NCBI GenBank assembly: GCA_964471235.1
Contig: CAYYGL010000003.1
Coordinates: forward strand, 1 to 60,859
Reading direction: 5' to 3'
From: an uncultured Calditrichaceae bacterium
GTDB lineage: Bacteria; Calditrichota; Calditrichia; RBG-13-44-9; J075
Length of the DNA: 60,859 nt
The translations under genes and the position numbers were made by a program. How positions within the stretch are numbered: the stretch's first letter is position 1; each line of letters starts with the position of its first letter. Below the pieces are notes generated by a model, which worked only from the letters and a program-made list of their open reading frames with translations, did no database searches and was not told where the DNA came from. Positions 1 to 22,921 of this stretch are shown here, piece after piece.

Positions 1-968
1 CCCCGGGGAGTACGAAAAACACCGTTCTCGGTATTCACGGTTAGAAATTCGATGATCCCACGTACCAGGGAAATAGCCGGCACATCGTCAAACAAACCCC
101 AACGGCGGGCATTGACCAGAACCGATCGCAGCACATTGGCATTGACGACCAGGTCCGGCGTCTCCACGATTTCCGGGGCAAACCAGGAGCAGATCCCTCC
201 TTTGGGTAACACGCCGGTGTAATTGACCGACCGTGAAATTTTTTTATTATTGGGAAACTGGTAATAATGAAGTATATCCCAGTACGGGGACGAAAGCAGT
301 TCATGAATCCGCTGCAAGGATTCTTCCGTAAAGCCAACCTGTTTTACCTGTTCCATCATCTCCAACCAATCGGCAAGCATCTCCAAAATCACGAACGTGT
401 CATCGGCATCGGGCTGAATGTTGATTAAATTGGTGTATTTCAGAAAACGTGCCCCGGAAGATTGGGGATTCAATCGAACCTCACTTACAGGAAAAAACTG
501 AAAAACCGTCACCGGCTTACCCTGTAACTGCCAGGTGAGGCTGTTTTCTAAAACCGTCGAGACAATTTTGCTTAACACATCCTGCCAGAAAGTGCGTTCT
601 TCGGAATGGAGGGAGGGGTCGGCTAACATTTTCCGGATGGTCCCGTAAAAATAAAAGTCGGTAAAAAAGGTATGGAAGCGGACAACATTCGAGCCGGTAG
701 TTGGAACACTGTGAGAAAGCCCCTCCCGGTGAAGGGGTTTGAGAAATCGAAGTAGGCGCAGCGGATACATCAGCAGTGTTGTCAACCGTATAACCGAATC
801 CGTACGGCTGATGATGAATTCCTTTAGATCCGATAAACGAAAGTCCGGATCCCCCTGAGGATACACCGCCGCATAACAAGGGAAATAGTGCCATTGCTGC
901 CATTCCCGGGCAATCTGTTGGCGGAGTGTCTCTTTGAACCGGCGAATGGCTTTCAAATTGATATTCAC
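1..968 (-). CDS. Hypothetical protein, 3'-partial (C-terminus lies beyond the left window edge). Possibly an alpha/alpha-toroid protein of the prenyltransferase/squalene-cyclase-repeat type.
   Basis: My own translation of the minus strand shows no stop in 322 codons from GTG at 966-968 down to position 3. It sits 5 nt downstream of the TAG stop (974-976) of the upstream gene. It is absent from the ORF track because there is no in-window stop. Peptide reads VNINLKAIRRFKETLRQQ...NIQPDADDTFVILEMLADW...TPDLVVNANVLRSVL. PDADDTF resembles the DxDDT(A) motif, but that is a weak call. Confidence 0.5.
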   Translation of the reverse strand, partial: MNINLKAIRRFKETLRQQIAREWQQWHYFPCYAAVYPQGDPDFRLSDLKEFIISRTDSVIRLTTLLMYPLRLLRFLKPLHREGLSHSVPTTGSNVVRFHTFFTDFYFYGTIRKMLADPSLHSEERTFWQDVLSKIVSTVLENSLTWQLQGKPVTVFQFFPVSEVRLNPQSSGARFLKYTNLINIQPDADDTFVILEMLADWLEMMEQVKQVGFTEESLQRIHELLSSPYWDILHYYQFPNNKKISRSVNYTGVLPKGGICSWFAPEIVETPDLVVNANVLRSVLVNARRWGLFDDVPAISLVRGIIEFLTVNTENGVFRTPR

Positions 969-973
969 ATTCT

Positions 974-3412
974 CTACCCCTCAAAGTGGATCACGATTTC
1001 TCCCCGGCTGCCATCAACCGTTATCAGTTGTCCATCTCGAACTTTTGTGGTGATACCCGGCACACTGAAAACAGCCGGTTTGTGCATCTCGCGGGCTAAA
1101 ATTGCCGTATGAGATAACATTCCGCCGACCTCGGTAACAATACCGCCGCAGATCGAGAACAATGGCGCCCAGCCGGGATCGGTGGCGGTGGTTACTATCA
1201 CTTCGCCAGGCTGCAAAGAAGCGCCCGGGGCTCGCATCAATTTTGCCGGGCCCGTTATGGTGCCGCTGCTGACCGGTATCCCGGTAAGCCGTTCATCCGC
1301 CGCAGAAAACGGTATTGAACGAGTGGTACCGGTTTGCCCGGCTTTCAAAGATTGGTATCTCTTCATCCGATGTTGAACCTGGTCTTTCAGCTTCCAGGGG
1401 ATTTTCCCACGGAGTAGTTGCTCTACCTCTGTCACCTGTAGAAAGAAAATCTCTTCGGTGGTGCCCAGGAGATGTTGTTGTACCAGAACCCGGGCGATTT
1501 GTAAATATAACCATCTAAGCTGCCCGAAACATTGCATTAGCAGGTGCTTGCTTTTTTCCCGCCATCCCCGGTAGAGAATAAACGCCTGAAAAAGACGTCG
1601 ATTGAGCCACCCGGTGATCGGGGTGGCATTTTCTTGTTCCCTCCCCGGCGATTGCTTTGTGGAGAGATGTTCTTTCTGACGAGAATTCTTTTCTGACCGC
1701 CGGAGAAGTAAACTGCGGATAATACCGAGCACCATCGCCGGGTCTTCCGACCAGCGTGGGGAAGCCAATTCGAATTCATTAAACGCCCGATCCCCGGCTG
1801 CCCGGATAAATTCTTCCAATTGCCTCCGGAATTTCCTGCCGGCAGGGGTGTGGGAGAGTTTTTTCTCAAGTTGGTTAAGATCATTTTCTAAGAAAAGCTC
1901 TTTTAGTGCCCGGTTTTGTTGAATTGTATCCACTAATTCCTCAATACCCGATTCCCAATGGTCTCGCTCAACTGCCCCGTGGGGGTGGTGTGCCAGCAGT
2001 TCATCAAGTACCGTCGTTCGGTTGGCATGGGTTATTCGGGCAGCAAGGGCGCCGTAAGCGCACATTCCCAAAAAAGTCGTTTGCTGATGTACCCGAAACG
2101 CCCGGGCGGTAATACGTAACAGGGTTTGCAAGCCATCTGCCAGCCACTCCTCTTGAGAAGAAGTGGCTCCCTGCCACGCTTGAAATGAATGGTTCACCTC
2201 GTTAAAATGCCGGGTCAGTCGGCGCTCCAGCCAGGCAGGTGACAACAGACCAATCCAGACATAAACATTTTTTAACAGAATGGCAGGGAAACTCTCGCGC
2301 TGATGATGCTCTCGTAGTTGGGGCTTGACCTCACTCAAATCGCACCCGATGCCGCGGGTAAGAATTATTTCTGCCGGAATCCCCAATAGTGCCTGATAAC
2401 TGTCCCACAGCATCTGTAAATCGATATGCGCCAGCCCGTGGTGCAACACTGCCATGCGGCTGGGTCGAACCGGGCGGGCGGGGTCTTCTTCCAATTCCAG
2501 GGTGCGCAGAAATGTTGACCAGGTTAGCGGGGTCACTACTTCCGGCATTATCTCACCGATGTTCGCCCGGGTTAACAGGCGTTCCGGGTTTACCGCTGAA
2601 GACAGGGCAGCCGTTGTGACCGGGCGAGCCTGTAAAATCCGGAAACGGCTGCCATCATAAGCAAACTCGATATCCGCTGCCTGATCCAGCAATTCTTCTA
2701 TCCCAACGGCCATTTCCAACAAGGGTCGCCAGAAATTCTCTTCCCGACCGACTTCAGGGAAATCTGCGGTCAACCGTCGATCGATCATTTCCCGGCTGGA
2801 TTTCTCAAATACCAGCCGGGTGGGTTCCTGTTGCCCGGACATCAGTTCATTTCCCAGGCCGGGAACCGCTTCCACAATTAGCTGATTGGGATTCCCGGTG
2901 ACCGGGTGAACGCTGAAAACCACCCCGGCTAAGACCGGATTCACCATCTCCTGCACAATCAGCGCATAAACAAATGGTTCCGCTTGCCCCCCCATCCCCT
3001 TTTCGTATTGCTGAAGGGCACTTTGCCATGAAGAGCGTATTGCCCGAAACAGTTCCGATTCGTTTTGAACATTCAGTATGCTTTCGAATTGTCCGGCAAA
3101 AGACTGCTCACTGCCGTCTTCCCAGACGGCTGAGGAACGGACTGCAACGTTCCCGGTAGGCAAACACTGTTGACACAACTGTTGATACGCCCGGCGTATT
3201 GCCTGTTGCAGCTCTTCCCGAATTTCGGAATGATCGGGGCTGGTAAACGCTTCCGCATCCAGGATGATGCAAAACCCGGGGGGGACCGGGTAACCGGCTT
3301 GTATCAACCTGCCCAGGGTAAGGGCTTTGGCGCCGGCAACGGGCAAATCCCGCGGGATTTTGTCAAGTAATATCACCCGTTCAGAAGTTGCTTTGGGGAT
3401 ATTCAGGTCCAT
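974..3412 (-). CDS. PEP-utilising (dikinase) family phosphotransferase: N-terminal PEP/pyruvate-binding ATP-grasp domain and C-terminal swivelling His domain, with no TIM-barrel domain (rifampin-phosphotransferase-like layout).
   Basis: 812 aa. The N-terminus GAKALTLGRLIQAGYPVPPGFCI is typical of PPDK_N. The extreme C-terminus GEVIVTTATDPGWAPLFSICGGIVTEVGGMLSHTAILAREMHKPAV is the mobile His-domain signature. It overlaps the upstream UbiA gene by 10 nt. Confidence 0.75.
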   Translation of the reverse strand: MDLNIPKATSERVILLDKIPRDLPVAGAKALTLGRLIQAGYPVPPGFCIILDAEAFTSPDHSEIREELQQAIRRAYQQLCQQCLPTGNVAVRSSAVWEDGSEQSFAGQFESILNVQNESELFRAIRSSWQSALQQYEKGMGGQAEPFVYALIVQEMVNPVLAGVVFSVHPVTGNPNQLIVEAVPGLGNELMSGQQEPTRLVFEKSSREMIDRRLTADFPEVGREENFWRPLLEMAVGIEELLDQAADIEFAYDGSRFRILQARPVTTAALSSAVNPERLLTRANIGEIMPEVVTPLTWSTFLRTLELEEDPARPVRPSRMAVLHHGLAHIDLQMLWDSYQALLGIPAEIILTRGIGCDLSEVKPQLREHHQRESFPAILLKNVYVWIGLLSPAWLERRLTRHFNEVNHSFQAWQGATSSQEEWLADGLQTLLRITARAFRVHQQTTFLGMCAYGALAARITHANRTTVLDELLAHHPHGAVERDHWESGIEELVDTIQQNRALKELFLENDLNQLEKKLSHTPAGRKFRRQLEEFIRAAGDRAFNEFELASPRWSEDPAMVLGIIRSLLLRRSEKNSRQKEHLSTKQSPGREQENATPITGWLNRRLFQAFILYRGWREKSKHLLMQCFGQLRWLYLQIARVLVQQHLLGTTEEIFFLQVTEVEQLLRGKIPWKLKDQVQHRMKRYQSLKAGQTGTTRSIPFSAADERLTGIPVSSGTITGPAKLMRAPGASLQPGEVIVTTATDPGWAPLFSICGGIVTEVGGMLSHTAILAREMHKPAVFSVPGITTKVRDGQLITVDGSRGEIVIHFEG

Positions 3413-4437
3413 ATTCGTTTCACCAAATTCCCTAAAAAACTGTTCATCACCACCTCTTTCCGAAACAGCCCCTTGTGGACAACCAACAGCAGGATGGGTA
3501 GCGCATACAGCCCGTTAAATTTTACCAGAAAAAGCGCCAGAAAGAGGGGCAGAATAATTGTCGGAAAGGGATGATGCAAGAATTGAAAAACGGTTTTACC
3601 GGTTTGAACAAAGGGATTTGGGTCATCTCCCTTGAAGAGTCTGTAAAGAGAATAAAGGTATGCGATTCCAAAAGCTGCCGGGAGAGCATAGAAAACCATC
3701 CCGTATTGCCCGGAAAGGCGCCAGGCAATAAAGGTCATTACAACCATGCCAAGCACCCGTTCGCTCTCCACCACTATCCGAAAAATTTTCCGGGAATGAG
3801 AATGGCCGGCAGAAACAGCAAAGGTGGTGGCGCCGGTTCGGGCATCGGCGTGGTAATCTTCCAACTGGTGATTCAAATCGGAAGCAATTCCCCGCAAGAA
3901 AATATAGAGTGTCAGTAGCACTACATCCAACGGTTCCCGGTAGTGAAAGGCAGCGAAAATCAGCAAAGTGGGCAGCACCCGCTGGGCAAACACCACATCC
4001 ATTAATCCGATGAAACCGCGCTCCTTCAGACGAAAGGGCTTCAGGGAATAGACCGTCGCCAGTATCAGCCAGGTGAACCAGAGCAGGAGAAAGAAGGGTT
4101 GCGTGCAAAAGAACCAGACACTCATTAGCGCCAGGCTCAATACCGCTCCAAAGGAGAAAACAACAAACGAAAAAGGCTCCCCCTGAAACACATTGAGTTT
4201 TCCCTGGGCAGCATCCAACTCCTGATCGGCAAAGTCATTGATCAGGTAACCATACGACGTGGAACTCACACTGAGCAGATAAAAGAGCAGCAGGCTAAGC
4301 AGGAAGTTATTGGAAAAATCATGTGACCGCAGGGCGATGTAAAATGCCAGAAAGATGTGTTCAATAAACGAATTATAAGTAAAAACCGCCCAGTTTCGCC
4401 AGCCGAATGTCTTTTTCAGATAATTTGATAACATCAT
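3403..4437 (-). CDS. UbiA-family polyprenyl(-phosphate) transferase, integral membrane protein.
   Basis: 344 aa and multi-pass hydrophobic. First Asp-rich motif YLINDFADQELDA (NDxxDxxxD); second motif LEDYHADARTG (DxxxD). It has a 4-nt ATGA-type overlap with the upstream gene. Confidence 0.8.
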   Translation of the reverse strand: MMLSNYLKKTFGWRNWAVFTYNSFIEHIFLAFYIALRSHDFSNNFLLSLLLFYLLSVSSTSYGYLINDFADQELDAAQGKLNVFQGEPFSFVVFSFGAVLSLALMSVWFFCTQPFFLLLWFTWLILATVYSLKPFRLKERGFIGLMDVVFAQRVLPTLLIFAAFHYREPLDVVLLTLYIFLRGIASDLNHQLEDYHADARTGATTFAVSAGHSHSRKIFRIVVESERVLGMVVMTFIAWRLSGQYGMVFYALPAAFGIAYLYSLYRLFKGDDPNPFVQTGKTVFQFLHHPFPTIILPLFLALFLVKFNGLYALPILLLVVHKGLFRKEVVMNSFLGNLVKRIWT

Positions 4438-6023
4438 TGTTCATGCCCGTTGCTATTATGAGGGGCGGTTTCTGAACTGTCTTTCTGCGAAATCACAAAC
4501 AGCCGCAGAGTGCCACGGACATCTTCAAACCGGTACTTCTTTTTTTCCGCAAAATGTCTTTCCAGGAAAGAAAGGATGGTTCCTTCCTTTTGGAGGTAGA
4601 AGTCCGCCGACAGACCGGTTTTGACTTCCTCGTGAAACCAGATACGGTGATAGGGAAAGGTGGGATTTAGCAAAACCCTTTCCAGATCGTTATCGGTGAT
4701 CGCATTGGGTTTATTGCGAAACAAATCTTCATACAGCTTTCGGTTGATGTTATAAGGAGATTGGAGGCCGGCATAAAATTTAAAGCGGATAAAGTCTGCC
4801 GGGGGGATAATGAGGAGCACATCCCCGTCCTGCCAGTTCTTCGCAATAATTTGGCTCTTAGTTTTCCAATCCGATTCCTGGTAAGGTTCGGTAATTGCCT
4901 TTTGGGAAAGTTTGCCACTTGCCAGAAAAAATATCAGTAAAACTCCATAACCAATTGCTTTAAAAGGAATCGTGGATATTCCCCGAATGATTAACAGACA
5001 ATAGGCAAACTGAAAGGGAACAAAATATCGTTTTACAAAGATGGGATGAAATTGGGATATTACCCAGAAAGAAACTACCGGCAACAGGTAAATCAGAACA
5101 ATGAACCAATATTCGCTTTCCGTTCGGAGGGCAGGTGAAATTTTTTCTTCCCGCTGGAAGGCAGACAATAAAAAGATGAGGGTAATGGCATATCCGGCTA
5201 AAATTCGATTCGAACGACCTTTAATTATAAAAAAATTCAACTGGGTAATTTGCATCATTAAATCGTACTTGCTGGGTACTCCTTCCATCACACTAATCCA
5301 GCGAGGACTTAAGGTACCACCGGCGGTCAATTGTTTTGCCAGGAAAGGCAATCCCGCCAGAATCACTATCACATAAGGGAGTTGAACAACCAACCATTTT
5401 CGGAAATGTTTTTTTGTCAAGGTTTTTCGAAACATACTACTATAGATGCCAATTAGCCCCTGGGCAATGACAACAAAAATTCCGATGTAATGGGTTGCCA
5501 ACATCAAGGCATTCACCAGCCCGTTAATCCAGAACCATTTCGAATTTTCCCCGGTAAGTATTTTGACGAACGAATAGACCGCCAGGAGCACCAACAATGT
5601 GTCCAGAGCATACATTCTTGCCACGGCGGAAAAAACGACCTGATCGGGCATGATGGCAAAGAAGAAGGTGCTTAATACAATATATGCAGTTTTTTTAAAG
5701 ATGTGCTGAGCCAACCGCAGAAACACAAACAAGCTGATTACCGAGAAGAAGAAAGAGGGCAGACGAATCCACATTTCGGAATAAACGTATTTATTCCAGA
5801 AATGCATGAGCAGGTAAAACAGAGGGGGATGCTTATCCGTTGACAGCACATGTAATAATGATAGAAAATTCTTTTCACCCAGCCAGAAACTCCAGGCTTC
5901 ATCAAAAGAGAGGGGACCGGCAAGTACCAATTTTACACCCCGCAGTACAATACCCAGACAGATGATACCGGCAATGGTATAAGGAACAGCCTTCTCTTTT
6001 CGCAACCAACCGTCAATTGCCAT
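4434..6023 (-). CDS. GT-C fold glycosyltransferase (PMT_2/ArnT-like, GT39/GT83-type).
   Basis: 529 aa with roughly 11-13 predicted TM segments. First-loop acidic motif PLSFDEAWSFW and the DKHPPLFYLLMHFW motif are typical of the ArnT/PMT family. There is a C-terminal soluble domain. Confidence 0.65.
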   Translation of the reverse strand: MAIDGWLRKEKAVPYTIAGIICLGIVLRGVKLVLAGPLSFDEAWSFWLGEKNFLSLLHVLSTDKHPPLFYLLMHFWNKYVYSEMWIRLPSFFFSVISLFVFLRLAQHIFKKTAYIVLSTFFFAIMPDQVVFSAVARMYALDTLLVLLAVYSFVKILTGENSKWFWINGLVNALMLATHYIGIFVVIAQGLIGIYSSMFRKTLTKKHFRKWLVVQLPYVIVILAGLPFLAKQLTAGGTLSPRWISVMEGVPSKYDLMMQITQLNFFIIKGRSNRILAGYAITLIFLLSAFQREEKISPALRTESEYWFIVLIYLLPVVSFWVISQFHPIFVKRYFVPFQFAYCLLIIRGISTIPFKAIGYGVLLIFFLASGKLSQKAITEPYQESDWKTKSQIIAKNWQDGDVLLIIPPADFIRFKFYAGLQSPYNINRKLYEDLFRNKPNAITDNDLERVLLNPTFPYHRIWFHEEVKTGLSADFYLQKEGTILSFLERHFAEKKKYRFEDVRGTLRLFVISQKDSSETAPHNSNGHEQ

Positions 6024-6106
6024 CTACTATCCTTACAAATTTCCTGGTGTTAATCCCACAGGTATCACATATTGCAAATGCAATCAACGAAATAATCGGA
6101 TACAAT

Positions 6107-7801
6107 TTATTTTATCAGGAGGGTTTTTATAACTTGTCTATACCGGTTGCCGAGTGTTGATCGGCTATTACCGGATGTAGATCTCGGGCTTTGGGAAGTT
6201 TCCCGGTTCACCACAAAGGTTACAAAATATATTCCGGATGCCAGCCGTTCCGCATTCCAGGAAACCGAAGATTTACCGGCGGGCAATCTTTTTTTAATAA
6301 TTGTCATTACTCGTTGGCCGGTTACATTAAAGACGCTAATTTTCACATCAGCCGGGAAAGATAATTCCCATTGAATTCGCGCGAAGGAATTAAACGGGTT
6401 GGGGAAAACGGAAAAAAGGGTTTCCGAGGGTGCGGCTGATAATTCATTTTCAACCCCAGTGGTAGATTCCGGTGTAGCAGAAGCAAACGCGGGATCAGCA
6501 TAATTGGGAATGGTATCAAAAGCGAATGCGGCATAATAGTATGTCGTGTTTGCATTCACAACGGTATCTACGAAAATCGTGTCCGTCCCCTGGTAAACCA
6601 GGTCGCCATCGGTCGGAAACCCCGGGAAATGATCCGTTCGTCTCATGATTCGGACTCCGGCATAATCTGCATTTGTCGGTGGCTGCCAACGCAGTTCAAT
6701 TTGCCCGATGCCGGGCTGTGCGGTGAACCCGTTTACCGAATCGGGCGGCAGAAAATCCCCGAACAGTTCTTCGCTATGAAGCACAAATTCTGCCATGTGT
6801 ACATAAGCAGAGTCGGTCAGTTCTGCTTCATAGTTGGCACGGATGGTCTCATTACTGGTGATGCGGCTGTCGGGCCAACTGGCAAACGGACCGCGGTCCC
6901 AGGGATCGCTGATATACACAAATGCTTTGATGCCCGCTTGAGAATGAATTTTATTAAAATACGGGATAAACCAGTTATTCCAGTTGGCGGGGTTGGTAGT
7001 ACCGCCGTTGTGGATTGGATTAGACTCGCAAATCATCACCGGTTTGCCATGGGCAGCGGCATCGGAGAGAAAGCCATCAGCATTGTTGATTTGCGAAGTG
7101 GAAAAATAATTGATCCCCCACCAGTCTACATATTGATCCCCGGGATACCATGCCATATAATTGAACTGATTGGGATTGACCGTATTCCAAACCCAGGCGA
7201 CATTGCGAACAAATTGCTGCTCAAAAACATTGTAAAGGTGTATCCAGATATTCACAAAATCCGCGGCGCTGACATTGGGATCGTTATGAATCCCACTGTT
7301 CCCCCATCCGAACTCGAATCCCGGTCGTACGAACACCGGGCCGTTGACTGCTTTGATTCGCTGGGCAATATCGATAATTCGATAATCCAGGGCGCCGCTT
7401 AAAATGTCCTGAACGGGAATATGAACCGTTCCATTGATCAAATAGGTGCTGTCAAACAGAGCGATTCCGACCAACAGGACGTACGGATTGCCATGCTGGG
7501 TGGTGATATTGATAAAATCGGTGTTGTCCAGGGAATTAAGGGCTGGATCGAGACTGGCATAAACGGAATAAATCACCGGAACTTGATTAACCCCGTTCTG
7601 GTATTCGCTTACATACTGCCAATTTTCGGCATCGCTGTAAAGGATGGAGACATATTGTCCCAGCCCGTGAATGACTCTTCCGGCGGGGGGTTCAAATTTT
7701 TCCCGGGAAAAGAGCGGCTGCCACAGAGTGCTCAGCAACCAGAAAACCAGAAAGCCGTTCAAAAACCGATGACGGCGCTGTTTAGATTGTGCTTCATCCA
7801 T
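6107..7801 (-). CDS. Secreted glycoside hydrolase (clan GH-A, GH26-like) with an FN3-like domain and a T9SS C-terminal sorting domain.
   Basis: 564 aa with an N-terminal signal/anchor FLVFWLLSTLW. VRPGFEFGWGNSG, WVWN, WYPGDQYVDWWGINYF and VMICESNP resemble GH26 catalytic-region motifs. PPDSVNGFTAQPG...ELRWQPP is FN3-like. The C-terminus FPNPFNSFARI...SGIYFVTF...LLIK is a T9SS CTD. Confidence 0.55.
   Translation of the reverse strand: MDEAQSKQRRHRFLNGFLVFWLLSTLWQPLFSREKFEPPAGRVIHGLGQYVSILYSDAENWQYVSEYQNGVNQVPVIYSVYASLDPALNSLDNTDFINITTQHGNPYVLLVGIALFDSTYLINGTVHIPVQDILSGALDYRIIDIAQRIKAVNGPVFVRPGFEFGWGNSGIHNDPNVSAADFVNIWIHLYNVFEQQFVRNVAWVWNTVNPNQFNYMAWYPGDQYVDWWGINYFSTSQINNADGFLSDAAAHGKPVMICESNPIHNGGTTNPANWNNWFIPYFNKIHSQAGIKAFVYISDPWDRGPFASWPDSRITSNETIRANYEAELTDSAYVHMAEFVLHSEELFGDFLPPDSVNGFTAQPGIGQIELRWQPPTNADYAGVRIMRRTDHFPGFPTDGDLVYQGTDTIFVDTVVNANTTYYYAAFAFDTIPNYADPAFASATPESTTGVENELSAAPSETLFSVFPNPFNSFARIQWELSFPADVKISVFNVTGQRVMTIIKKRLPAGKSSVSWNAERLASGIYFVTFVVNRETSQSPRSTSGNSRSTLGNRYRQVIKTLLIK
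6110..6424 (-). other. T9SS (Por) C-terminal sorting domain of the GH26-like protein. It carries an unusual Ser/Arg-rich insert before the last strand.
   Basis: The peptide reads ETLFSVFPNPFNSFARIQWELSFPADVKISVFNVTGQRV...ASGIYFVTFVV, then the insert NRETSQSPRSTSGNSRSTLGNR, then YRQVIKTLLIK. Confidence 0.65.
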
Positions 7802-7839
7802 ACCACTGCCTCCTCTAATATGCAGATAAAATCAGGCGC

Positions 7840-9582
7840 TTACCCCCGGACTTCTTTCTCCACGGGTACCGAATTTTTAGCATCGCGGTACAGATTTTTA
7901 GTGGTTCCGGAAATGTGCCAGATGTAAGGATTGTGATCCCGCAGATGGAAATTAATGGTGGCTTCGATTCGGCAAAACGCCTCAATCAGTATCATCCCGG
8001 TGACATAGAGCAAGTGGCGAGGGTGCCAGTCGATTGCCCGCCAGAGGTATTTTAATATCCGCCGGGATTGGTATGTAGAGACCCGGTAGTCTTTCGTGGC
8101 AAGCAGATGTTTATGCCCCAGCGCAATACGCTTCCGTTGTTTTATGTAATCTTTTACCGTCTCAGGACCCTTGTTCCGAACAATCGCTTCCGGTGCATAG
8201 CGAATCAAATAGCCTTTTTCGTTAAAGGTGGCTTCAATCGCGGCTTCATCCACCGCGGTATAGGAGGGAATCTTCTGGATCACGTTCAGAAAAGCAATCA
8301 TCTCCCCACACTTGGGAGTTTCCAAAGACAGGTGATGATGTAATTCCCAGAGTTTATGCACACAATAGCCAATGAAGGTTTCGGTTGAGTTTACCGGGAT
8401 GGGATGTGCACCTACCACCCCCACCCCGGGGGTACCAAAGGGTTTTACCAGCTCTTCAATGGTTTGTGGTTCCGGGATGGTATCGGCACTTTCCAGAACC
8501 ACGATGTCTCCCACGGCATGTTTTAAGAAGATGTTGATTGCCGAGGCTTTCCCTCGCCGTTGTTCTTCCACAATCAGATGAATTTTCGGATTTCGCTGTT
8601 CAAATTCCCGCACTATCTGATCGGTGCGGTCGGTGGAGCCGGAGGAAACCACAATAATTTCCTCGATGACCCCGGAACTCAATCGCTGATTTTCCAGGGC
8701 TTCCAGGCAATTGGCGATATTATCTTCTTCATTATATGCCATCACCCCAACACTAATGCGGAAAAAACCGGGGGTGAGGGGATGGGTGAGTTTGCGAAAC
8801 TTCACCGGCGTCAGTAATTCTTCGTATTCTTCAACAAAACGAGTGTAATCTTTTCTCAGAAACGTAATATGACGCAATATTTCCAGGAAGGGGGCATGAT
8901 ACCGCCATACTTTTAGTGCCGTTCCCCATCGATCACTGCCGCTTAATTTGGAAACCGAATATTCGGTATCCTTGAACACGAAGGAAACTTCCTTAACCCG
9001 TAAGCGCAAGGCATAAGCAAGATAGATCATGTGAATCTGAAATAGATACCCGCCGGCAGGTAAACTGTCCAGGTCAATCCGGCGCAGGAAAGATGCAGAG
9101 TAGACCCGAAAGCCCGAGGTAAAATCCCATATTGGCTTCACCATAATGTAAGCCACATACATGTTTGCCAGTTTACTCAGCAATAGTTTGCGGAACCGCC
9201 ATCCTTCCACCCGCACCCCACGAATATAGCGGCTGGCTATCAGCAAGTCATAATCCCGGGCGAACTTTAACAATTTATTGAGATAAAACGGGGAATGGGA
9301 GAGATCCGCATCCATGGTAATAATGGGGTCGTAGCCCTCCTTCAAGGCGATTTTAAATCCCTCTTTAATGGCGGAACCAAGCCCGGCTTTCTTCTCCCGA
9401 TGAATCACAATCATATTGCCCAAGTCGGATGCTAATTCCTCAGCCACTTCGCCGGTTCCGTCCGGTGAGTTATCATCAATTACCACAATTGCAAACTCCT
9501 GATCCAGTAAATTGATAATTCTAACCAGAGTCGGCAATTGTTCCGCCTCGTTATAAGTCGGCAATATGATACAGGGATTCAC
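7840..9582 (-). CDS. Two-domain GT2 fusion: an N-terminal DPM1/Ppm1-like polyprenyl-phosphate hexose synthase domain plus a second GT2 domain.
   Basis: 580 aa with a GTG start. Domain 1: CIILPTYNEAEQL, VVIDDNSPDGTGEV, ITMDADLSHSP, YSVSKLS. Domain 2: SVGVMAYNEEDNIANCLEAL, VVSSGSTDRTDQIV, VVLESADTIP. No TM segment is evident. Confidence 0.7.
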   Translation of the reverse strand: MNPCIILPTYNEAEQLPTLVRIINLLDQEFAIVVIDDNSPDGTGEVAEELASDLGNMIVIHREKKAGLGSAIKEGFKIALKEGYDPIITMDADLSHSPFYLNKLLKFARDYDLLIASRYIRGVRVEGWRFRKLLLSKLANMYVAYIMVKPIWDFTSGFRVYSASFLRRIDLDSLPAGGYLFQIHMIYLAYALRLRVKEVSFVFKDTEYSVSKLSGSDRWGTALKVWRYHAPFLEILRHITFLRKDYTRFVEEYEELLTPVKFRKLTHPLTPGFFRISVGVMAYNEEDNIANCLEALENQRLSSGVIEEIIVVSSGSTDRTDQIVREFEQRNPKIHLIVEEQRRGKASAINIFLKHAVGDIVVLESADTIPEPQTIEELVKPFGTPGVGVVGAHPIPVNSTETFIGYCVHKLWELHHHLSLETPKCGEMIAFLNVIQKIPSYTAVDEAAIEATFNEKGYLIRYAPEAIVRNKGPETVKDYIKQRKRIALGHKHLLATKDYRVSTYQSRRILKYLWRAIDWHPRHLLYVTGMILIEAFCRIEATINFHLRDHNPYIWHISGTTKNLYRDAKNSVPVEKEVRG

Positions 9583-10227
9583 AAATAACCCGTTCTTTGA
9601 TTTGGTTATGCAATAAATTTATTTATGACCATTATGCGTTCGATACGTGGTTCAGAACGTCCTCGTAACTATAAGAATAATGCCCCTGTATTTGTTTCCC
9701 GGTAAACTATTGACACTGACTTTTTGTTGTTGTGATAATGTCAAGTTTAAAATCTCAAAATTTTACCAAGTTGTTTGAGAACATCATAATGATTATCGAA
9801 TCCTGACTCGACAACAATGAGAAAATTTGTTAATATATACGTATTCCCCGTTCAAGTGAAATAGAAACATATATCACCAGGCCCCGTTGCTATCCGAAGA
9901 CCATACACAATGTAAATGAACACTATCTATAATCGGTGGTTATGTCAAATGATATTACCAAATGAACAATTTACAATAGAACTTATTCATAGTTAAGTGC
10001 TTTTATAACCTGAATCGTCCCCCTCCCGTTCCAAAAAACGGGGCACTCTCTCTCCGTGGTGTATTTACAATGAATTTTTACGATCATTCTATCCATTTGA
10101 TTACCCACTAATTAAGTGGGAATATGGTCTAATATAAATTGTCCTCATTACAAACGAATTTCAAGCATTTTATTTAAAAAGAACAATTTTTACTTATTCG
10201 GAATTATTCAACCCTAAAGCCCCTTCC

Positions 10228-12072
10228 TCAGGGCTTTCTTACAAATTTATAAATTGCATATCGACGGTGATAGACCGGTGTTAAATACTTGAATCCGAAT
10301 TTATCCACCCAGGTTAAATTTGATTCTTCCTGGCTCACTCTGGAAAATACCGGCGGAAGTTCCTGAATTGGTTTGTTTCTGGAACGATAAATTACCCATA
10401 AGGAATCCATCTGGTCGTAAGGGATATCGGGTACCCCAATACGACAGACCCGGCAAAATTTATCAAAAGGGGTAAAATCGAGCATATACGGTTCGTGATT
10501 CCGGATTGGGGCGTAGAAATAATCCGTGGCAAACGCAAAAATATCCTGGTAAATAATTGGCTGTTTCCCACCGCTATAAGGCGCCGGGTAATTATCTTCC
10601 AGGGCAGCCGATTGCAGAAAAAGGATCCCCGATATCACCATCACAACGGACATGACGATCTGCACCAGCTTAGATAAATAATGATACGATATAACCAGAA
10701 CAAACGGCAACAACACAGCCATAAAGCGGGCAATGATTAAATCACGCCAGAAGAATTGATGCGCCCATAACAATATCCAGAACGCCCCTACAAAAGTGAG
10801 AGTTAACCGTATCTCCGGGGCGGAAATGTTAAGCGGCATCATTTTTATAAGCCGCGAATAGAACCATACCAGACCTAATAGTGCTGTGGGCATCACCTCG
10901 ATTAGCTGAAGCCAACCCAATTTGAGCAATACTTCCAGAATAATGACTATCAAGATAAACAGAATAAAATCGTTCATTAAAATCACATGGCGATTACGTT
11001 CATCAAGGTCATGTTCTGACATTTTTTCTTCGGTTGAAAGAAACAGAATATCCGAAGATGAGATGAACGACAGATGACGTTTTAACGAAGACATCCAGTG
11101 AGAAAGAATCGGATTGGAAACATTTTTTTCGTAATGGTTCAATCGAACCAGGAATGCCCCCAGTAAGATAGCGGATAAACCAACAAACAGGAGTTCGATA
11201 AAACGGAATTGAAAAATCATCACAGAAAAGCGGTAAATCACTTCCTCGGACTGATGAATCACCTTCATAACCACCCGGGAAGTGTTTAACCCGTCAGTAA
11301 CTGAAAGGTACACGGTAGTGGAAAGCCATAACAGCAAAAGGGAACTGAACATAATGATAAAGAATGATTTGATATATTTCGAGCGTCTCATGACAACCAT
11401 CAAGATATAAGGGAGCAATAAGATAAAATTAAAATCCGCTAAAAATCCGCCGAGGGCAACCGCCAGAAAGATCCGGAAATCCTTTTTTTCTCCGGTATGG
11501 GCATATCTTTCCCCAAACCATACCAATAAGGCACTAAAAAGACAGACCAACCCCCACATCCGGGCTACCACAAAGGTATTCAACATAACCCCCGAGGCAC
11601 TCAGTGCGAGGAAGAGATAGGGGGGAGTGTTGGAGGAGATGAGGAGTTTGGTTAACACAAGGAGGAATAATATTCCCACGCCGTAATTAAGCAATCGCAG
11701 AGCAACGATGTCATTGTGTATGCCAAATTGTTGAACGATTTTTTGGAGCAAGTGGAAAGGAGGCGGATGCCCGATACCGAATTCTTTCATTTGGAGAATT
11801 TGCCCAAAAGAAAAACGCTGGGCATATACCCAGGAAAAAAATTCATCCACGTGCACGCCTTTACTGAGAGCGGCTGTCCAGTAAAGGATGGAGAACAAAA
11901 CGGCTGCCATTAAAAAATAGACCACCGGCTTTCGGTTGTTTGAAAAAAGCGATCTCAAGTGTAAAGGACCTTTGATGGTTAGGCAGATAAAAGCATCTCG
12001 GTGAAGGAAGCGATTAATGTTCCATTCCGGGGGCAAAGACTCCTTTCCCAAACCCCCAGAACCAGTAAACAA
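10228..12072 (-). CDS. Polytopic membrane protein, probable GT-C (PMT_2/ArnT-like) glycosyltransferase.
   Basis: 614 aa. VHVDEFFSWVYAQ is a first-loop DE motif, and GIGHPPPFHLLQKIV parallels the HPPL motif of 4434..6023. There are many TM segments. The track start overlaps the upstream GT2 by 59 nt; an internal Met (MAAVLFSILY, about position 11910) is a plausible true start. Confidence 0.5.
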   Translation of the reverse strand: MFTGSGGLGKESLPPEWNINRFLHRDAFICLTIKGPLHLRSLFSNNRKPVVYFLMAAVLFSILYWTAALSKGVHVDEFFSWVYAQRFSFGQILQMKEFGIGHPPPFHLLQKIVQQFGIHNDIVALRLLNYGVGILFLLVLTKLLISSNTPPYLFLALSASGVMLNTFVVARMWGLVCLFSALLVWFGERYAHTGEKKDFRIFLAVALGGFLADFNFILLLPYILMVVMRRSKYIKSFFIIMFSSLLLLWLSTTVYLSVTDGLNTSRVVMKVIHQSEEVIYRFSVMIFQFRFIELLFVGLSAILLGAFLVRLNHYEKNVSNPILSHWMSSLKRHLSFISSSDILFLSTEEKMSEHDLDERNRHVILMNDFILFILIVIILEVLLKLGWLQLIEVMPTALLGLVWFYSRLIKMMPLNISAPEIRLTLTFVGAFWILLWAHQFFWRDLIIARFMAVLLPFVLVISYHYLSKLVQIVMSVVMVISGILFLQSAALEDNYPAPYSGGKQPIIYQDIFAFATDYFYAPIRNHEPYMLDFTPFDKFCRVCRIGVPDIPYDQMDSLWVIYRSRNKPIQELPPVFSRVSQEESNLTWVDKFGFKYLTPVYHRRYAIYKFVRKP

Positions 12073-12916
12073 GTCCGATTTTTAACACAATCACTGCCAT
12101 CGGATGACGAAACACAATTGCCGGATTTTTCTGGATGAATACCATTAGAGTGCGAAACAGTTTAACAGCCGGAAGTAGGGGACCGACGGTAAGAAAGAGA
12201 ATTTTATTTCTGGCAATCGACGCTCCCGGGAGTGGCAGCACCTTTAACACGCGGGAGGTGATATGACCGATTTTTTTCTGATGCTGCAAAAATGTGCGGA
12301 AGTCACTGCGATGGGTATGTTTGACCCGAATATCCGGTGAGAATAGAATCCGATATCCGCTTTGGGTGACTTGATAGTTAAACACCAGGTCTTCCTGGGG
12401 ATAATAGCGGGGATCGAAATAGCCGAGCTTTTCGAACACCCATCTTTTATAAGAAATATTTAGGGTGGGGATATGAGGTACAAACCCCCGGGGCTGCTGG
12501 GGAATGAATTCCCGAAATTCCCCCATATATCCCGCCCATCCCACATTATCATGGAGTGGATTCCCATTAATTGCCGCGCCGCCGATAGCAGCCACCTCAG
12601 GGAACTCCCGGTGTAGGGAGACGATTTTCTCCATCCATTCCCGGTCTGCTTCACAATCCGAATCGATGAACAAAATAATTTCTCCCCGGGACTCTTTTAC
12701 CCCATGATTCCGGGCAGTACCCGGATCTGTTTTTCGCTCAAAATGAATCAACTGAACCTGCGGATAGCGAGTGGTTACAATCTCCGGTGTTTTATCCACC
12801 GAACTGTCAGCCAGGATTATCTCAAATTCACCCCGATAAGTTTGGGCATACAGGGCATCCAAACATTTCTCAATGGTTGATTGCGAATTATAAGATGGGA
12901 TAATGACAGAAATCAT
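12014..12916 (-). CDS. GT2 family glycosyltransferase.
   Basis: MISVIIPSYNSQSTIEKCLDALYAQTY and ILFIDSDCEA (DxD). I place the start at the internal ATG (12914-12916), 2 nt after the upstream stop. The track ORF extends to 12973. Confidence 0.8.
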   Translation of the reverse strand: MISVIIPSYNSQSTIEKCLDALYAQTYRGEFEIILADSSVDKTPEIVTTRYPQVQLIHFERKTDPGTARNHGVKESRGEIILFIDSDCEADREWMEKIVSLHREFPEVAAIGGAAINGNPLHDNVGWAGYMGEFREFIPQQPRGFVPHIPTLNISYKRWVFEKLGYFDPRYYPQEDLVFNYQVTQSGYRILFSPDIRVKHTHRSDFRTFLQHQKKIGHITSRVLKVLPLPGASIARNKILFLTVGPLLPAVKLFRTLMVFIQKNPAIVFRHPMAVIVLKIGLVYWFWGFGKGVFAPGMEH

Positions 12917-12918
12917 GT

Positions 12919-13785
12919 CTACCGGTTTATGAAAATGAAGTAGCGGTGATGTCCCCAGAAATTTTTGATACAACGGGGAGCATGTTCCAACATTCCGTAG
13001 CGGAGAATTTCTCCTTCCATCCCCGGATTTTTCCCGGAGAAGAAATCAAGAATACACCATCCCGAGTGACCGGTTTCGTTTTTTCTTTTTGCAACAAGCC
13101 GTTTCGCCACCCAGTTTAGTTTTAAGCGGGCAAGCAAATCTTCCTTTTTCATGGGAATGTCCGGCCAGGGGGGAACATCGAAAATTCCTTGCTTCCATAA
13201 CTGCCACCCCTCCCCGCTGAATGCCCTTTTCACAGTTTTCGGCTGGATATGGGAAAGATGTATTTGGGGCACATCCACTGCATATTTTTTACGCAGCAAA
13301 TACCCCAGTCCCCGGGTGTTGGGAACACAAATCAGAATCACTTTTCCGGCGGTTTGTTTCACCCGATTCGCAAAGCGCTCCAGGTCTTTCACAAACCACA
13401 GGGCGGCAAAATTCCATACCAGGTCAAAAGCCCCGGGGGGAAATGGTAATTCCTCCGGATTGTGACACAGAACTTCAGCGGGCAGGTTTATCTTCTGCCA
13501 GGTTTTCCGGATGAGCTCGACCCGCTGCTCATTGTCATCCACAATTGTGACTCGCTTCCCCTGTTTTGCCCACCAAATGCTGTTAATGCCGCTGATGCCG
13601 GTCATCCCGAAAGCCGGCACTTCCAGGATGGTTTCAATATCTGCCTGCTCAGCTATCATTGAAAAAATGCCATGCAGCAAAAACCGTTCGTAGGTGGTGC
13701 CCAGCCCTTCATCTGGATTGGAAAAATAATCTTCCCAGGTGTCAAGAACCGGTAGAAACGGATTGATTGACTGGTGCTGATTCAT
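12919..13785 (-). CDS. Class I SAM-dependent methyltransferase.
   Basis: 288 aa. ILEVPAFGMTGISGIN (motif I-like), VTIVDDNEQ (acidic residue after beta-2) and FDLVWNFAALWFV. The start is uncertain because of a 44-nt overlap with the upstream gene. Confidence 0.65.
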   Translation of the reverse strand: MNQHQSINPFLPVLDTWEDYFSNPDEGLGTTYERFLLHGIFSMIAEQADIETILEVPAFGMTGISGINSIWWAKQGKRVTIVDDNEQRVELIRKTWQKINLPAEVLCHNPEELPFPPGAFDLVWNFAALWFVKDLERFANRVKQTAGKVILICVPNTRGLGYLLRKKYAVDVPQIHLSHIQPKTVKRAFSGEGWQLWKQGIFDVPPWPDIPMKKEDLLARLKLNWVAKRLVAKRKNETGHSGWCILDFFSGKNPGMEGEILRYGMLEHAPRCIKNFWGHHRYFIFINR

Positions 13786-20992: not shown

Positions 20993-21009
20993 GTAATTGA
21001 TTACCTCTA

Positions 21010-22065: not shown

Positions 22066-22142
22066 TGACAATGGGGGGTAATGTGTGAATATTCATCCCG
22101 TTGGAGCACCGTCATCATTCGGCTCCGTCCGACAACAACATG

Positions 22143-22178
22143 AAAAAGCTCCTCCCTGTTCCGATGAGAGGAGCTTTT
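22143..22178 (-). terminator. Rho-independent terminator (bidirectional form) between the carbamoyltransferase operon and carA.
   Basis: The plus strand reads AAAAAGCTCCTC - 13 nt loop - GAGGAGCTTTT. On the minus strand this gives a stem of about 11 bp followed by TTTTT. It lies about 70 nt downstream of the DUF5989-like stop. Confidence 0.6.
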
Positions 22179-22246
22179 CATAATAGAATCCGTAATGCAT
22201 TCCAAAAACTTTTTCCGACTGAGCCGTAACGGTTTTCCGGGCATTT

Positions 22247-22405: not shown

Positions 22406-22489
22406 GGTATCTCCTGTTTTTTAAGAAGGTTTCCGAAATGGAATATTTTATAAAAGTTCACATCCGTTAAAAATTTGAACGTCAGTTTT

Positions 22490-22912: not shown

Positions 22913-22921
22913 TTTTTACCC

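Follow-up and report, generated by a model that had tools for sequence, protein, structure and literature searches.

A conserved operon joins an RPH-type dikinase, a terpene cyclase-like protein and a UbiA prenyltransferase, probably for a sugar-carrying isoprenoid lipid

A dikinase with the layout of rifampin phosphotransferase (RPH), encoded in a frame that overlaps that of a UbiA-family transferase, raises the question of what such an enzyme phosphorylates and what the genes around it make. The case comes from a 60,859-nucleotide stretch of DNA of an uncultured Calditrichaceae bacterium (the window), whose left end was originally predicted to recall the decaprenyl-phosphoribose/arabinose donor pathway or, alternatively, to hold a prenyl-lipid tailoring module.

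We re-read coordinates, motifs, domain order and start/stop overlaps from the sequence. All four left-end genes lie on the minus strand, and the predicted reading frames of the dikinase (974..3412, 812 aa), the UbiA-superfamily membrane prenyltransferase (3403..4437, 344 aa) and the PMT_2/ArnT-like GT-C glycosyltransferase (4434..6023, 529 aa) were recovered as described. So were their overlaps: the dikinase ATG opens a 10-nt overlap with the end of the UbiA frame, and the GT-C stop and the UbiA ATG share the 4-nt ATGA. The fourth gene, X (1..968), has a GTG start at 968, 5 nt past the dikinase stop, and leaves the window, which holds the N-terminal 322 aa of a soluble protein of ~470 aa. All four are genuine genes. 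They form part of a conserved, hitherto undescribed operon, of which we found no published account. In the window it spans ~1..13785, continuing beyond the left edge, and closes, on the downstream side, a glycan locus of 60 kb encoded on one strand. Its product is probably a sugar-carrying isoprenoid lipid.

Domain layout of the dikinase

A Pfam search of the dikinase located PPDK_N at residues 62-273 (E 3.7e-45) and the PEP-utilizers domain at residues 734-804 (E 1.4e-23), and found no PEP-binding TIM-barrel family. The central part is PF27448 (Rph_4th) in the precomputed annotation of the protein collection. From the N-terminus, the protein comprises an ATP-grasp, a central domain for substrate binding and, at the C-terminus, a swivelling phospho-His domain, with H768 lying in GGMLSHTAILARE (residues 763-775). 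Among solved structures, those of Listeria RPH match best (E 1e-48), with an alignment covering most of the protein, including its C-terminal half. The RPH-Lm residues R117, R666/E667 and H825, whose roles have been described (PMC4844700), correspond to R92, R618/E619 and H768, which are invariant across 10 X-linked dikinase orthologues. The domain set and the retained catalytic residues thus bear out the predicted RPH layout, as opposed to that of PEP synthase.

RPH-Lm (PDB 5HV1/5HV2/5FBS) and PigC, RedH and HapC likewise combine an ATP-grasp, a large central substrate domain and a C-terminal swivelling His, and the chemistry is presumably common to all: ATP is converted to AMP + Pi and the beta-phosphate passes via the His to a hydroxyl on a hydrophobic substrate. 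The dikinase differs from these enzymes in identity (<30% overall), in scoring far below every equivalog cut-off and in its divergent central domain. Its gene is neither a resistance gene nor part of a prodiginine cluster but shares a biosynthetic operon with genes for UbiA, glycosyltransferases and a cyclase-like protein. Between clusters the central domain is only 19-32% identical, the closest relative excepted, and the variants may therefore act on different substrates.

The UbiA protein and protein X

The UbiA protein matches PF01040 at 67 bits (cut-off 34) and carries both Asp-rich motifs, the predicted NDFADQELD at residues 67-75 and a second as D194-x3-D198, while the loop after motif 1 reads (R)xGKxNxF in place of the usual RPxxxG. 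It belongs to an orphan subfamily with at least 190 relatives. A fold search with its AF2 model (pLDDT 95) placed DGGGP synthase and archaeal UbiA homologues nearest among solved folds, with Rv3806c 14th. In a profile search, ChlG gave 1.4e-10 (44 bits) compared with 7e-4 for Rv3806c (22 bits, one motif only). BchG/ChlG (42 bits) and homogentisate phytyltransferase were among the nearest profiles, all far below their family cut-offs. Models of DPPR synthase did not match the window UbiA itself and matched 3 of 8 orthologues faintly. The protein is a member of an orphan clade nearer to chlorophyll synthase and DGGGP synthase than to phosphoribosyltransferases, and the decaprenyl-phosphoribose/arabinose analogy is not supported.

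Protein X carries the predicted DxDDT-like motif, D-A-D-D-T-F, encoded at 410..393 (D187/D189/D190 at 410..399); D187 and D189 are invariant even among homologues of 16-25% identity. Its family comprises 22 members among 5.8 billion clustered proteins, and has no Pfam or NCBIfam match, nor does its sequence link it to any family of terpene cyclases. We modelled the full-length relative P0123, 76% identical to X, with AF2 (pLDDT 85.6, pTM 0.89). The top Foldseek matches in the PDB were AsDMS (1.9e-6), squalene-hopene cyclase, SsDMS, MstE and OSC, with modest TM-scores of 0.40-0.57. The model suggests that X represents a previously unnamed family with an alpha/alpha fold like that of class II terpene cyclases, the best matches being single-beta-domain enzymes (MstE, the AsDMS cyclase domain) and beta-gamma enzymes (SsDMS, squalene-hopene cyclase). 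X has a DxDDT motif at a helix start and a conserved core rich in aromatics, features it shares with class II cyclases in general terms, although sequence similarity is undetectable. The partner of X is a dikinase; AsDMS instead carries a fused phosphatase.

Conservation and the surrounding glycan genes

The dikinase lies immediately upstream of X, often with a 4-nt overlap, in 12/12 distinct loci from an FCB-type lineage and Chloroflexota. Because this holds for so small a family, the arrangement is far beyond chance. Where the flank upstream of the dikinase is visible (10 loci), UbiA is the immediate neighbour in 8. The conserved pair is dikinase then X. The wider core adds UbiA, two glycosyltransferases (a 319-aa GT2 and a GT1), a methyltransferase, a flippase and a protein of GH26 or GH-like type. 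The shared backbone runs methyltransferase, GT2, GH26/GH-like, UbiA, dikinase, tail modifier, GT1, methyltransferase and Wzx-like flippase. The expected trio of dikinase, UbiA and GT-C is not a conserved unit: UbiA belongs to the core, but the GT-C gene is variable or unseen across lineages.

Sister clusters in other phyla have geranylgeranyl-reductase (GGR)-like flavoproteins in place of X, or lack X. Between dikinase and GT1, L014 and L025 carry a GGR/lycopene-cyclase-family flavoprotein, and the slot is empty in L024, where the dikinase overlaps the GT1 directly. L025 additionally encodes Dxs as well as a synthase of short-chain prenyl diphosphates (FPPS 255 bits, CrtE 235 bits), and L014 and L024 a GGR, which ties the UbiA protein to prenyl diphosphate chemistry. 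Together with the X fold search, these genes support the prenyl-lipid tailoring alternative of the original prediction. No prenyl diphosphate synthase or GGR is encoded in the window itself; such genes may lie beyond its edge. In L020, whose X relative is 77% identical, X is followed by GT1, a methyltransferase and a Polysacc_synt flippase, and the same three genes follow the dikinase in L024. The window and L025 share the gene order methyltransferase, GT2, GH26, UbiA.

The GT-C protein matches PMT_2 at 34.3 bits (cut-off 26.1), with 8 hydrophobic spans and an FDE motif past the first. It is only a variable neighbour, an accessory module member. Its L001 orthologue is 76% identical, and its adjacency to UbiA is confined to the window and the closest relative. 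Non-orthologous GT-C genes occur elsewhere in Chloroflexota loci and in L014, and none was seen in L002, L024 or L025.

Upstream, still on the minus strand, 6107..7801 encodes a glycoside hydrolase of GH26-like type that ends in a C-terminal sorting domain for type IX secretion. Its orthologues immediately precede UbiA in L024 (42% identity) and L025 (32%); Chloroflexota loci and L014 have instead a Glyco_hydro_cc-type protein adjoining UbiA or the dikinase. The two-domain GT2 (7840..9582, minus) is 45-47% identical to the first genes of L007 and L009. Its N-terminal half resembles polyprenyl-phosphate sugar synthases of the ArnC/Dpm1 type (ArnC, AglJ, PpgS) and, judged by this likeness, is therefore a likely, ordinary source of the lipid-linked donor for GT-C. 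A polytopic membrane protein with ~9 hydrophobic spans and no family match (10228..12072, minus) probably starts downstream of the listed TTG; in L025 a fragment weakly similar to it (25% over 108 aa) precedes the methyltransferase.

The 319-aa GT2 (12014..12973, minus), MftF/EpsD-like rather than Dpm1-like, ends in a hydrophobic anchor and belongs to the co-conserved core (43-45% identity in Chloroflexota loci, 51.5% in L025, 42.5% in L014). The SAM-dependent methyltransferase at 12919..13785 (minus), co-conserved with it, has a 39%-identical counterpart in the same place in L025. An NAD-dependent SDR epimerase/dehydratase (13742..14755, minus) is a possible, weakly conserved module member, ~29% identical to a Chloroflexota-locus SDR that is slightly closer to another window SDR (55438..56421). 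The window also encodes a carbamoyltransferase, AsnB-like amidotransferases and SDR epimerases.

Proposed pathway and rival readings

We give an even chance to the reading that window 1..~13785 holds an operon whose product is a glycosylated isoprenoid lipid, either a terpenoid glycolipid or a lipoglycan. Family assignments and synteny are observed; the steps and their order are inferred from gene order and family chemistry. UbiA would ionise a short all-trans prenyl diphosphate (C15-C20) via its two Mg-binding Asp-rich motifs and pass the chain to a nucleophile, probably oxygen, like its nearest relatives ChlG and DGGGP synthase. X would then use D189, the middle Asp of its DxDD motif, to protonate the distal C=C of that chain (the role of this Asp follows PMC12232559), giving a cyclised tail or added water, and the flavoproteins in its slot in sister clusters would saturate the tail instead. 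By the mechanism described for its relatives (PMC4844700, PMC13534948), the dikinase would move the ATP beta-phosphate onto H768 with release of AMP and Pi, after which the His domain would swivel to the central domain, where R618/E619 would help the phosphate reach a hydroxyl of the hydrophobic lipid; a sugar or the UbiA acceptor could also be its target. The phospho-lipid would be glycosylated by the GT1, predicted just past the edge, and the 319-aa GT2, then methylated and exported by the Wzx-like flippase. GT-C enzymes may lengthen the glycan outside the membrane with polyprenyl-phosphate sugar from the two-domain GT2, and the secreted GH26-like enzyme may trim it.

Parts of this scheme have known counterparts. 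UbiA-type prenyltransferases and class II cyclases occur together in meroterpenoid pathways, and the MstE substrate, geranylgeranylated dihydroxybenzoate, is the product type of a UbiA-type enzyme; unlike MstE-type systems, the X locus has no aromatic-acceptor pathway genes. ChlG/ChlP and DGGGP synthase/GGR pair an O-prenylating UbiA with a prenyl-tail modifier, as do the GGR-flavoprotein sister clusters, but the window UbiA differs in its sub-threshold scores and its loop after motif 1, and its context is glycan assembly and export, without tetrapyrrole or glycerol-phosphate lipid genes. At the level of general logic, the scheme resembles moenomycin-type phosphoglycolipids, in which a short rearranged isoprenoid is O-linked to a small phosphorylated head group and a methylated, carbamoylated, amidated oligosaccharide is built on the head-group phosphate. 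There a TIM-barrel prenyl-3-phosphoglycerate synthase takes the place of UbiA, the phosphate comes from 3-phosphoglycerate so that no kinase is needed, and a class II cyclase is absent.

A pentofuranose donor pathway, in which UbiA would be a polyprenyl-phosphate phosphoribosyl-type transferase feeding GT-C and the dikinase would supply polyprenyl phosphate or a sugar diphosphate, fits the 4-nt UbiA/GT-C overlap in the window and L001, the recurrence of a GT-C gene in many loci and the absence of a phosphoglycosyl transferase among the scanned window ORFs. Three-component systems that similarly cluster a UbiA-type PPPRS, a flippase and a GT-C are known from mycobacteria (the DPA pathway) and also beyond Corynebacteriales (Citrobacter youngae O1, PMC11127046), none of those known with a dikinase. 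We nevertheless consider it very unlikely. Judged by the DPPR-synthase models, the lead of ChlG and the fold rank of Rv3806c, the window UbiA is no orthologue of PPPRS/DPPRS; neither a 5'-phosphatase nor a DprE1/E2-type pair turned up; the GT-C genes are not orthologous between lineages and are dispensable across relatives; sister clusters carry prenyl diphosphate supply (FPP/GGPP synthase, Dxs) and prenyl-reducing genes (GGR); and the Dpm1/ArnC-like GT2 already accounts for the GT-C donor.

In plants, phytol kinase and phytyl-phosphate kinase feed homogentisate phytyltransferase and chlorophyll synthase. The dikinase might analogously phosphorylate a free terpenol, either the X product after diphosphate loss or a salvaged prenol, to make the UbiA donor, which would suit the nearest UbiA profiles and the translational coupling of the dikinase to a tail modifier. 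The pyrophosphoryl-His intermediate of the dikinase cycle (PMC4844700) makes diphosphate transfer conceivable, and the cyclase-phosphatase fusion AsDMS shows that phosphorylation of a cyclised terpenol is enzymatically managed (PMC12232559). Yet characterised enzymes of this architecture deliver one phosphate whereas UbiA enzymes require a diphosphate, no second kinase was seen, and the L024 dikinase/GT1 overlap without a tail modifier fits handover to a glycosyltransferase, which leaves this route unlikely. Somewhat less probable still is a ligase role, with transient O-phosphorylation as the leaving group for a net condensation (e.g. lipid + head group) to a phosphate-free product. HapC/PigC work via a phosphorylated intermediate (PMC13534948), and RedH (276 bits) and PigC (258 bits) are among the best NCBIfam matches, but far under their equivalog cut-offs of 1300-1350 bits; RPH and PEP-synthase-like models score similarly, and nearby pyrrole or aldehyde pathway genes are absent. 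X itself could be a sugar-acting alpha/alpha-barrel hydrolase, epimerase or lyase for the glycan part, with DxDD as an acid/base or metal site, given GH116, alkaline invertase, N-acylglucosamine 2-epimerase and a putative glycosylhydrolase lower in its fold list (E ~1e-2), further invariant D40, D356, D387 and R339, and a locus full of glycan enzymes. We regard this too as unlikely, since class II cyclases lead by 3-4 orders of magnitude in E-value, DxDDT is their signature, invariant aromatics are plentiful (FHTFFTDFYFY) and prenyl-reductase-family flavoproteins fill the X slot in sister clusters. That the dikinase is a stand-alone rifamycin-modifying enzyme, as sharing its architecture with RPH, its best solved relatives, might suggest, is hardly credible: it scores 233 bits against the 999-bit cut-off of the rifampin phosphotransferase equivalog model, and it is contradicted by the strict synteny and the codon overlaps that join the dikinase gene to X and UbiA across phyla.

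Gene layout and the dikinase

All genes in the 60.9 kb are carried on the minus strand. The dikinase ORF (974..3412, minus strand, 812 aa; Pfam PPDK_N and PEP-utilizers) lies beside the UbiA ORF (3403..4437, minus strand, 344 aa; Pfam UbiA) and the GT-C ORF (4434..6023, minus strand, 529 aa; Pfam PMT_2), and on its other side is the partial minus-strand ORF of protein X, which starts with GTG at 968 and is open at the left edge. By reading the sequence directly, we found that the end of the UbiA gene contains the dikinase ATG, 10 nt inside, and that the GT-C stop and the UbiA ATG overlap as ATGA; the dikinase stop and the X start are 5 nt apart. All ORF coordinates and overlapping starts and stops of the original prediction were confirmed in this way, and the motifs it quoted (GGMLSHTAILARE, NDFADQELD, DYHAD and PDADDTF) were all found. 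A scan of 1..13000 gave no evidence of internal terminators, terminator-like sites being at chance level, and yielded 35 promoter-like sites versus 18 in shuffles, with no convincing minus-strand site among them.

The 812-aa protein had been claimed to have the layout of rifampin phosphotransferase (RPH) and not that of PEP synthase, a claim borne out by Pfam, NCBIfam and the alignment with RPH. Pfam places a PPDK_N ATP-grasp domain (PF01326) at residues 62-273 with an E-value of 3.7e-45 and the mobile, swivelling PEP-utilizers domain (PF00391) at the extreme C-terminus (residues 734-804), and the precomputed annotation of the window protein assigns the central domain to PF27448, the Rph type. 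The Pfam HMM searches returned no PEP/pyruvate-binding TIM barrel at E <= 0.01, so that no cryptic PEP-binding domain came to light, and the PEP synthase equivalog scored 198 bits against a cut-off of 598, with the match confined to the two shared domains. The best solved relatives are the Listeria RPH structures (E about 1e-48), with most of the protein aligned including the C-terminal half. Since the protein lacks a PEP-binding domain and its RPH alignment spans most of its length, the PEP synthase reading was rejected. In NCBIfam, matches to the PRK06241 "PEP synthase" subfamilies and to RedH, PigC and Rph rank together between 230 and 290 bits, far short of the respective cut-offs, and the rifamycin phosphotransferase equivalog NF041857 itself gave 233 bits against a cut-off of 999. 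It is not a PEP synthase, and it is not orthologous to RPH either; its ATP-grasp domain, Rph central domain and C-terminal swivel His assign it, at the sequence level, to the RPH-type small-molecule dikinases.

From the RPH alignment and an alignment of 12 relatives, R92 corresponds to RPH R117, R618/E619 to R666/E667, and H768 to H825; H768 is invariant in all 12 aligned relatives. Mutagenesis of RPH has shown the importance of R117, R666/E667 and H825, the Arg-Glu pair being needed for the second phosphotransfer (PMC4844700). Because these residues are conserved, the protein is very probably an active dikinase, and it should hand the beta-phosphate of ATP via the swivelling His to a hydroxyl in the central domain.

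The UbiA-family protein and protein X

The 344-aa protein is a true member of the UbiA superfamily by profile, motifs and fold. It scores 67.2 bits against PF01040 (cut-off 34.2), and both Asp-rich motifs, N67-D68-xx-D71-xxx-D75 and D194-xxx-D198, are intact and invariant, with a loop after motif 1 that departs from the usual RPxxxG. The closest folds to its AF2 model (pLDDT 95) are DGGGP synthase (DGGGPS) and the archaeal homologues AfUbiA and ApUbiA. Rv3806c ranks 14th in this search, where all TM-scores are similar (0.48-0.69) and thus discriminate weakly between prenyl- and phosphoribosyl-transferases. Sequence was more informative as to the proposal that this is a phosphoribosyltransferase of the Rv3806c type, and did not favour it. 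The window protein has no DPPR synthase match, and such matches appear in three of eight orthologues at E 1.6e-4 or worse. A profile search against PDB sequences retrieved chlorophyll synthase (1.4e-10), Rv3806c (7e-4) and DGGGP synthase (0.05), and the match to Rv3806c (8j8j) amounts to 22 bits over residues 44-132 only, covering one motif. Grouping with quinone prenyltransferases, which had been named as a counter-indication, was not seen either: MenA types scored about 22 bits against a cut-off of 264, and no match to 4-hydroxybenzoate-type prenyltransferases was obtained. Scores were 28-42 bits against BchG/ChlG, archaeal prenyltransferases and homogentisate phytyltransferase, the highest being 42 bits for BchG/ChlG with a cut-off of 212. 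Since no subfamily cut-off is approached and the similarity to Rv3806c is faint, the protein clusters neither with the quinone prenyltransferases nor with the phosphoribosyltransferases. At least 190 proteins, 40-52% identical, make up its own subfamily, the few named ones coming from Calditrichia, Syntrophotaleaceae, Syntrophorhabdaceae, Omnitrophota and Chloroflexota.

Partial X matched no family in Pfam or NCBIfam. Beside the closest relatives of the dikinase are full-length homologues, about 470 aa long, and a profile run against 5.8 billion clustered proteins defined a family of 22 members, all unnamed and lacking Pfam domains; 21 members and 10 remote homologues were likewise without a Pfam match. 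Among 185,579 species genomes there were five matches, all in Chloroflexota and mostly in Anaerolineales, and when 1.84 billion representatives were searched exhaustively with an HMM, 69 matched, including remote homologues at 16-25% identity. By sequence, X is not a member of a known cyclase family: profile searches against the PDB gave no sequence match and no sequence-level bridge to such a family. Its fold is seen in a confident AlphaFold model of one homologue, built on a 21-sequence alignment (pLDDT 85.6, pTM 0.89). Its best PDB match by Foldseek is AsDMS (E 1.9e-6), followed by squalene-hopene cyclases (SHC; 6.6e-5 to 2e-4), the Streptomyces drimenyl diphosphate synthase SsDMS (2.6e-4) and MstE (6.5e-3), with an oxidosqualene cyclase and a fungal copalyl diphosphate synthase also among the best matches; TM-scores to class II cyclases are 0.40-0.57. 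The model thus points to a class II terpene cyclase-like alpha/alpha-barrel fold (beta or beta-gamma).

Among 21 family members the D187-x-D189-D190-T motif does not vary, and the remote homologues, too, all retain D187 and D189, the middle Asp. The middle Asp of the class II cyclase DxDD motif is the general acid (PMC12232559). In the AlphaFold model taken by itself, rather than superposed on cyclases residue by residue, the motif begins the helix 188-207. The remote homologues P0144 and P0164 are stand-alone genes in unrelated neighbourhoods. Five remote homologues (P0163, P0164, P0166, P0185 and P0200) have an N-terminal hydrophobic anchor, keep the DxD core and are encoded by stand-alone genes, for example beside a histidine kinase.

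Conserved neighbourhood and sister clusters

ORFs were predicted in every locus fetched and matched against a reference set. In each of the 12 distinct loci (the window, L001, L002/3/19, L004, L005/6, L007/9, L008/12, L010, L011, L013, L016 and L017/18), X lies directly downstream of the dikinase, and the two genes often overlap by 4 nt. The dikinase is directly preceded by UbiA in 8 of the 10 loci with that flank visible; in L007/L009 a Glyco_hydro_cc gene stands between the two, and the short upstream flank of L017 has no UbiA. A 319-aa GT2 (12014..12973 in the window) is the fourth co-conserved gene, at 43-52% identity, and in L002, L007, L016 and L020 X is followed by a GT1 (macrolide-GT/UDPGT type). 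The order in L020, whose X is 77% identical to the X of the window's closest relative, is X, GT1, methyltransferase and Polysacc_synt flippase, and a similar order probably lies beyond the left edge of the window. The GT-C gene behaves differently from what was proposed. It adjoins UbiA only in the window and L001, so the trio of dikinase, UbiA and GT-C does not hold as a conserved unit; Chloroflexota loci have a different GT-C, one gene away or on the opposite strand, and none was seen in L002, L024 and L025. A more distant dikinase relative in L015 (Verrucomicrobia) has a context without UbiA or glycan genes, and the link therefore does not extend to the whole dikinase family.

Two proteins without Pfam matches beside UbiA or the dikinase, in L005 (5075..6535) and L014 (6351..7907), are homologous to the Glyco_hydro_cc protein of L007 (6165..7619) with E-values of 1e-33 to 1e-103, which makes a secreted GH-like enzyme a constant component of the module. 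A protein of 965-1111 aa without a family match is encoded downstream of X/GT1 in L002 (15253..18150) and L013 (11533..14868); the two copies, one on a metagenome contig and the other in an Anaerolineales genome, are 53% identical.

Three sister clusters served as informative contexts of more distant dikinases or UbiAs. L014 reads GT2, GT-C, UbiA, flippase, B12-radical-SAM (nearest models lipid-related), GH-like, dikinase, flavoprotein, GT1 and a bona fide member of the geranylgeranyl reductase (GGR) family. L025 begins with a methyltransferase, GT2, a short-chain prenyl diphosphate synthase (FPPS/CrtE-like), GH26 and UbiA, and goes on with an FAD protein, flippase, B12-radical-SAM, dikinase, the flavoprotein as in L014, GT1, NUDIX and Dxs; four of these genes, for the methyltransferase, GT2, GH26 and UbiA, occur in the same order in the window, at 32-52% identity. 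L024, from Calditrichia, has GH26, UbiA, several genes, dikinase, GT1, methyltransferase, flippase and GGR, with the dikinase directly overlapping GT1. The flavoprotein of L014 (10574..11791) and L025 (11758..12981) is a divergent member of the GGR/lycopene-cyclase family, 405-407 aa long and 47% identical between the loci. It overlaps the dikinase stop codon, exactly at the position of X in the window-type cluster, and looks like a non-homologous replacement of X.

Because this gene order is common to the window-type loci and to L014, L024 and L025, the module backbone is methyltransferase, GT2, GH, UbiA, dikinase, tail modifier, GT1, methyltransferase and flippase, where the tail-modifier slot holds X, the flavoprotein or nothing. 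Comparison of the clusters would make X one of several interchangeable enzymes acting on a prenyl tail. In addition, some versions carry isoprenoid supply and prenyl-reducing genes, which places UbiA in prenyl diphosphate chemistry. The original prediction had offered a prenyl-lipid tailoring module as its alternative reading, and this gains support from the fold match of X and from the GGR, prenyl diphosphate synthase and Dxs of the sister clusters. A carotenoid pathway (lycopene elongase plus cyclase) was considered and rejected, as neither the window nor the related loci contain crtB/crtI-type genes.

A candidate glycolipid pathway in a glycan locus

The most economical reading of the operon is a pathway to a glycosylated isoprenoid lipid. 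From the family assignments, catalytic residues and synteny observed here, we infer an order of steps, their substrates and a role for the phosphate. UbiA would install a short prenyl chain, X would cyclise or hydrate its distal double bond, and the dikinase would phosphorylate a hydroxyl of the lipid; GT1 and GT2 would then build a glycan on it, a Wzx-like flippase would export it, and GT-C and GH26 would act outside the membrane.

A bolder version is possible but doubtful: the dikinase, UbiA and the tail enzyme would make a dedicated phospho-terpenoid lipid that replaces undecaprenyl phosphate plus a phosphoglycosyl transferase as glycan primer or anchor, and X would found a new class II terpene cyclase family. 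That lipid would consist of a short isoprenoid, cyclised or saturated, and carry a phosphate added by the kinase; its glycan would be exported by Wzx, and several bacterial phyla would then have a second, previously unseen route for starting lipid-linked glycan assembly. The scan of window ORFs did not turn up a phosphoglycosyl transferase, and three large ones have no family match (none in Pfam for 28107..29135, 342 aa; 29203..30801, 532 aa; and 42229..44229, 666 aa).

Other readings change the part played by single enzymes. The dikinase might activate a prenol so that its product feeds UbiA, or X might be a sugar-acting barrel enzyme; we regard each as unlikely, and for X the sugar-acting alpha/alpha barrels enter the fold list only at E about 1e-2. 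Transient activation by the dikinase in the manner of PigC is less likely still. The pentofuranose (arabinan) donor system favoured originally we hold to be improbable even beside these: such systems do exist outside mycobacteria (PMC11127046), but the UbiA component fails the sequence test and the phosphatase is absent. It would be most surprising if the dikinase were a stand-alone resistance kinase.

The glycolipid pathway combines known elements, namely the enzyme superfamilies and terpenoid glycolipid/lipoglycan biosynthesis; what is undescribed is their combination, together with the X family and the UbiA subfamily, and full-text literature searches found no account in which an RPH-type dikinase is tied to geranylgeranyl reductases, terpene cyclases or UbiA. 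Genomes very commonly encode RPH-type dikinases, and the label that these usually carry, PEP synthase, is wrong. To our knowledge, only a few of them have known substrates, namely rifamycins and prodiginine precursors; related two-component kinases act on phenols. By tying one dikinase clade to prenyl-lipid and glycan enzymes, the conserved operon offers a testable physiological role for part of a large orphan family. It points to a hitherto undescribed phosphorylated terpenoid glycolipid, and it defines two directly testable orphan enzyme groups, the cyclase-like X family and the UbiA subfamily. The carriers are uncultured vent and sediment lineages (Calditrichia-like, Anaerolineales, Desulfobacterota, Omnitrophota), so the operon may make an envelope lipid or a biomarker that has so far escaped recognition. 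The window sequence is present in one DNA sequencing run, a hydrothermal vent metagenome.

The 529-aa protein is assigned as a GT-C glycosyltransferase on the basis of its polytopic domain with 8 hydrophobic spans, an acidic motif (SFDEAW) following the first span, and a PMT_2 match of 34.3 bits (cut-off 26.1). The N-terminal half of a two-domain GT2 (7840..9582) resembles polyprenyl-phosphate sugar synthases and therefore offers an ordinary donor source for GT-C without involvement of UbiA. The window is one long glycan locus, with several GT2 and GT4 enzymes, a UDP-GlcNAc 2-epimerase, SDR epimerases, YdjC, an acetyltransferase and secreted enzymes with type IX sorting tails. Together with the Calditrichia-like relatives of UbiA, these tails point to an organism of the FCB group. 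CarB (1062 aa) and CarA lie directly beside a NodU/CmcH-type carbamoyltransferase (17804..24733), which suggests a dedicated supply of carbamoyl phosphate for O-carbamoylation of the glycan. Between a GT2 and the SDR epimerase is a protein with the N-terminal domain of LarA (14822..16060), the nickel-pincer lactate racemase; its part here may be to epimerise a sugar acid or hydroxy acid for the glycan. Two heparinase II/III-like proteins (31274..33823 and 36191..38479), normally polysaccharide lyases, are found among GT4 glycosyltransferases. Two separate LPG_synthase_TM (MprF flippase-like) membrane proteins are encoded at 25846..26949 and 50705..51706, and two AsnB-like amidotransferases at 52494..54446 and 59122..60735; such asparagine-synthase-like enzymes elsewhere amidate uronic acids in glycans.
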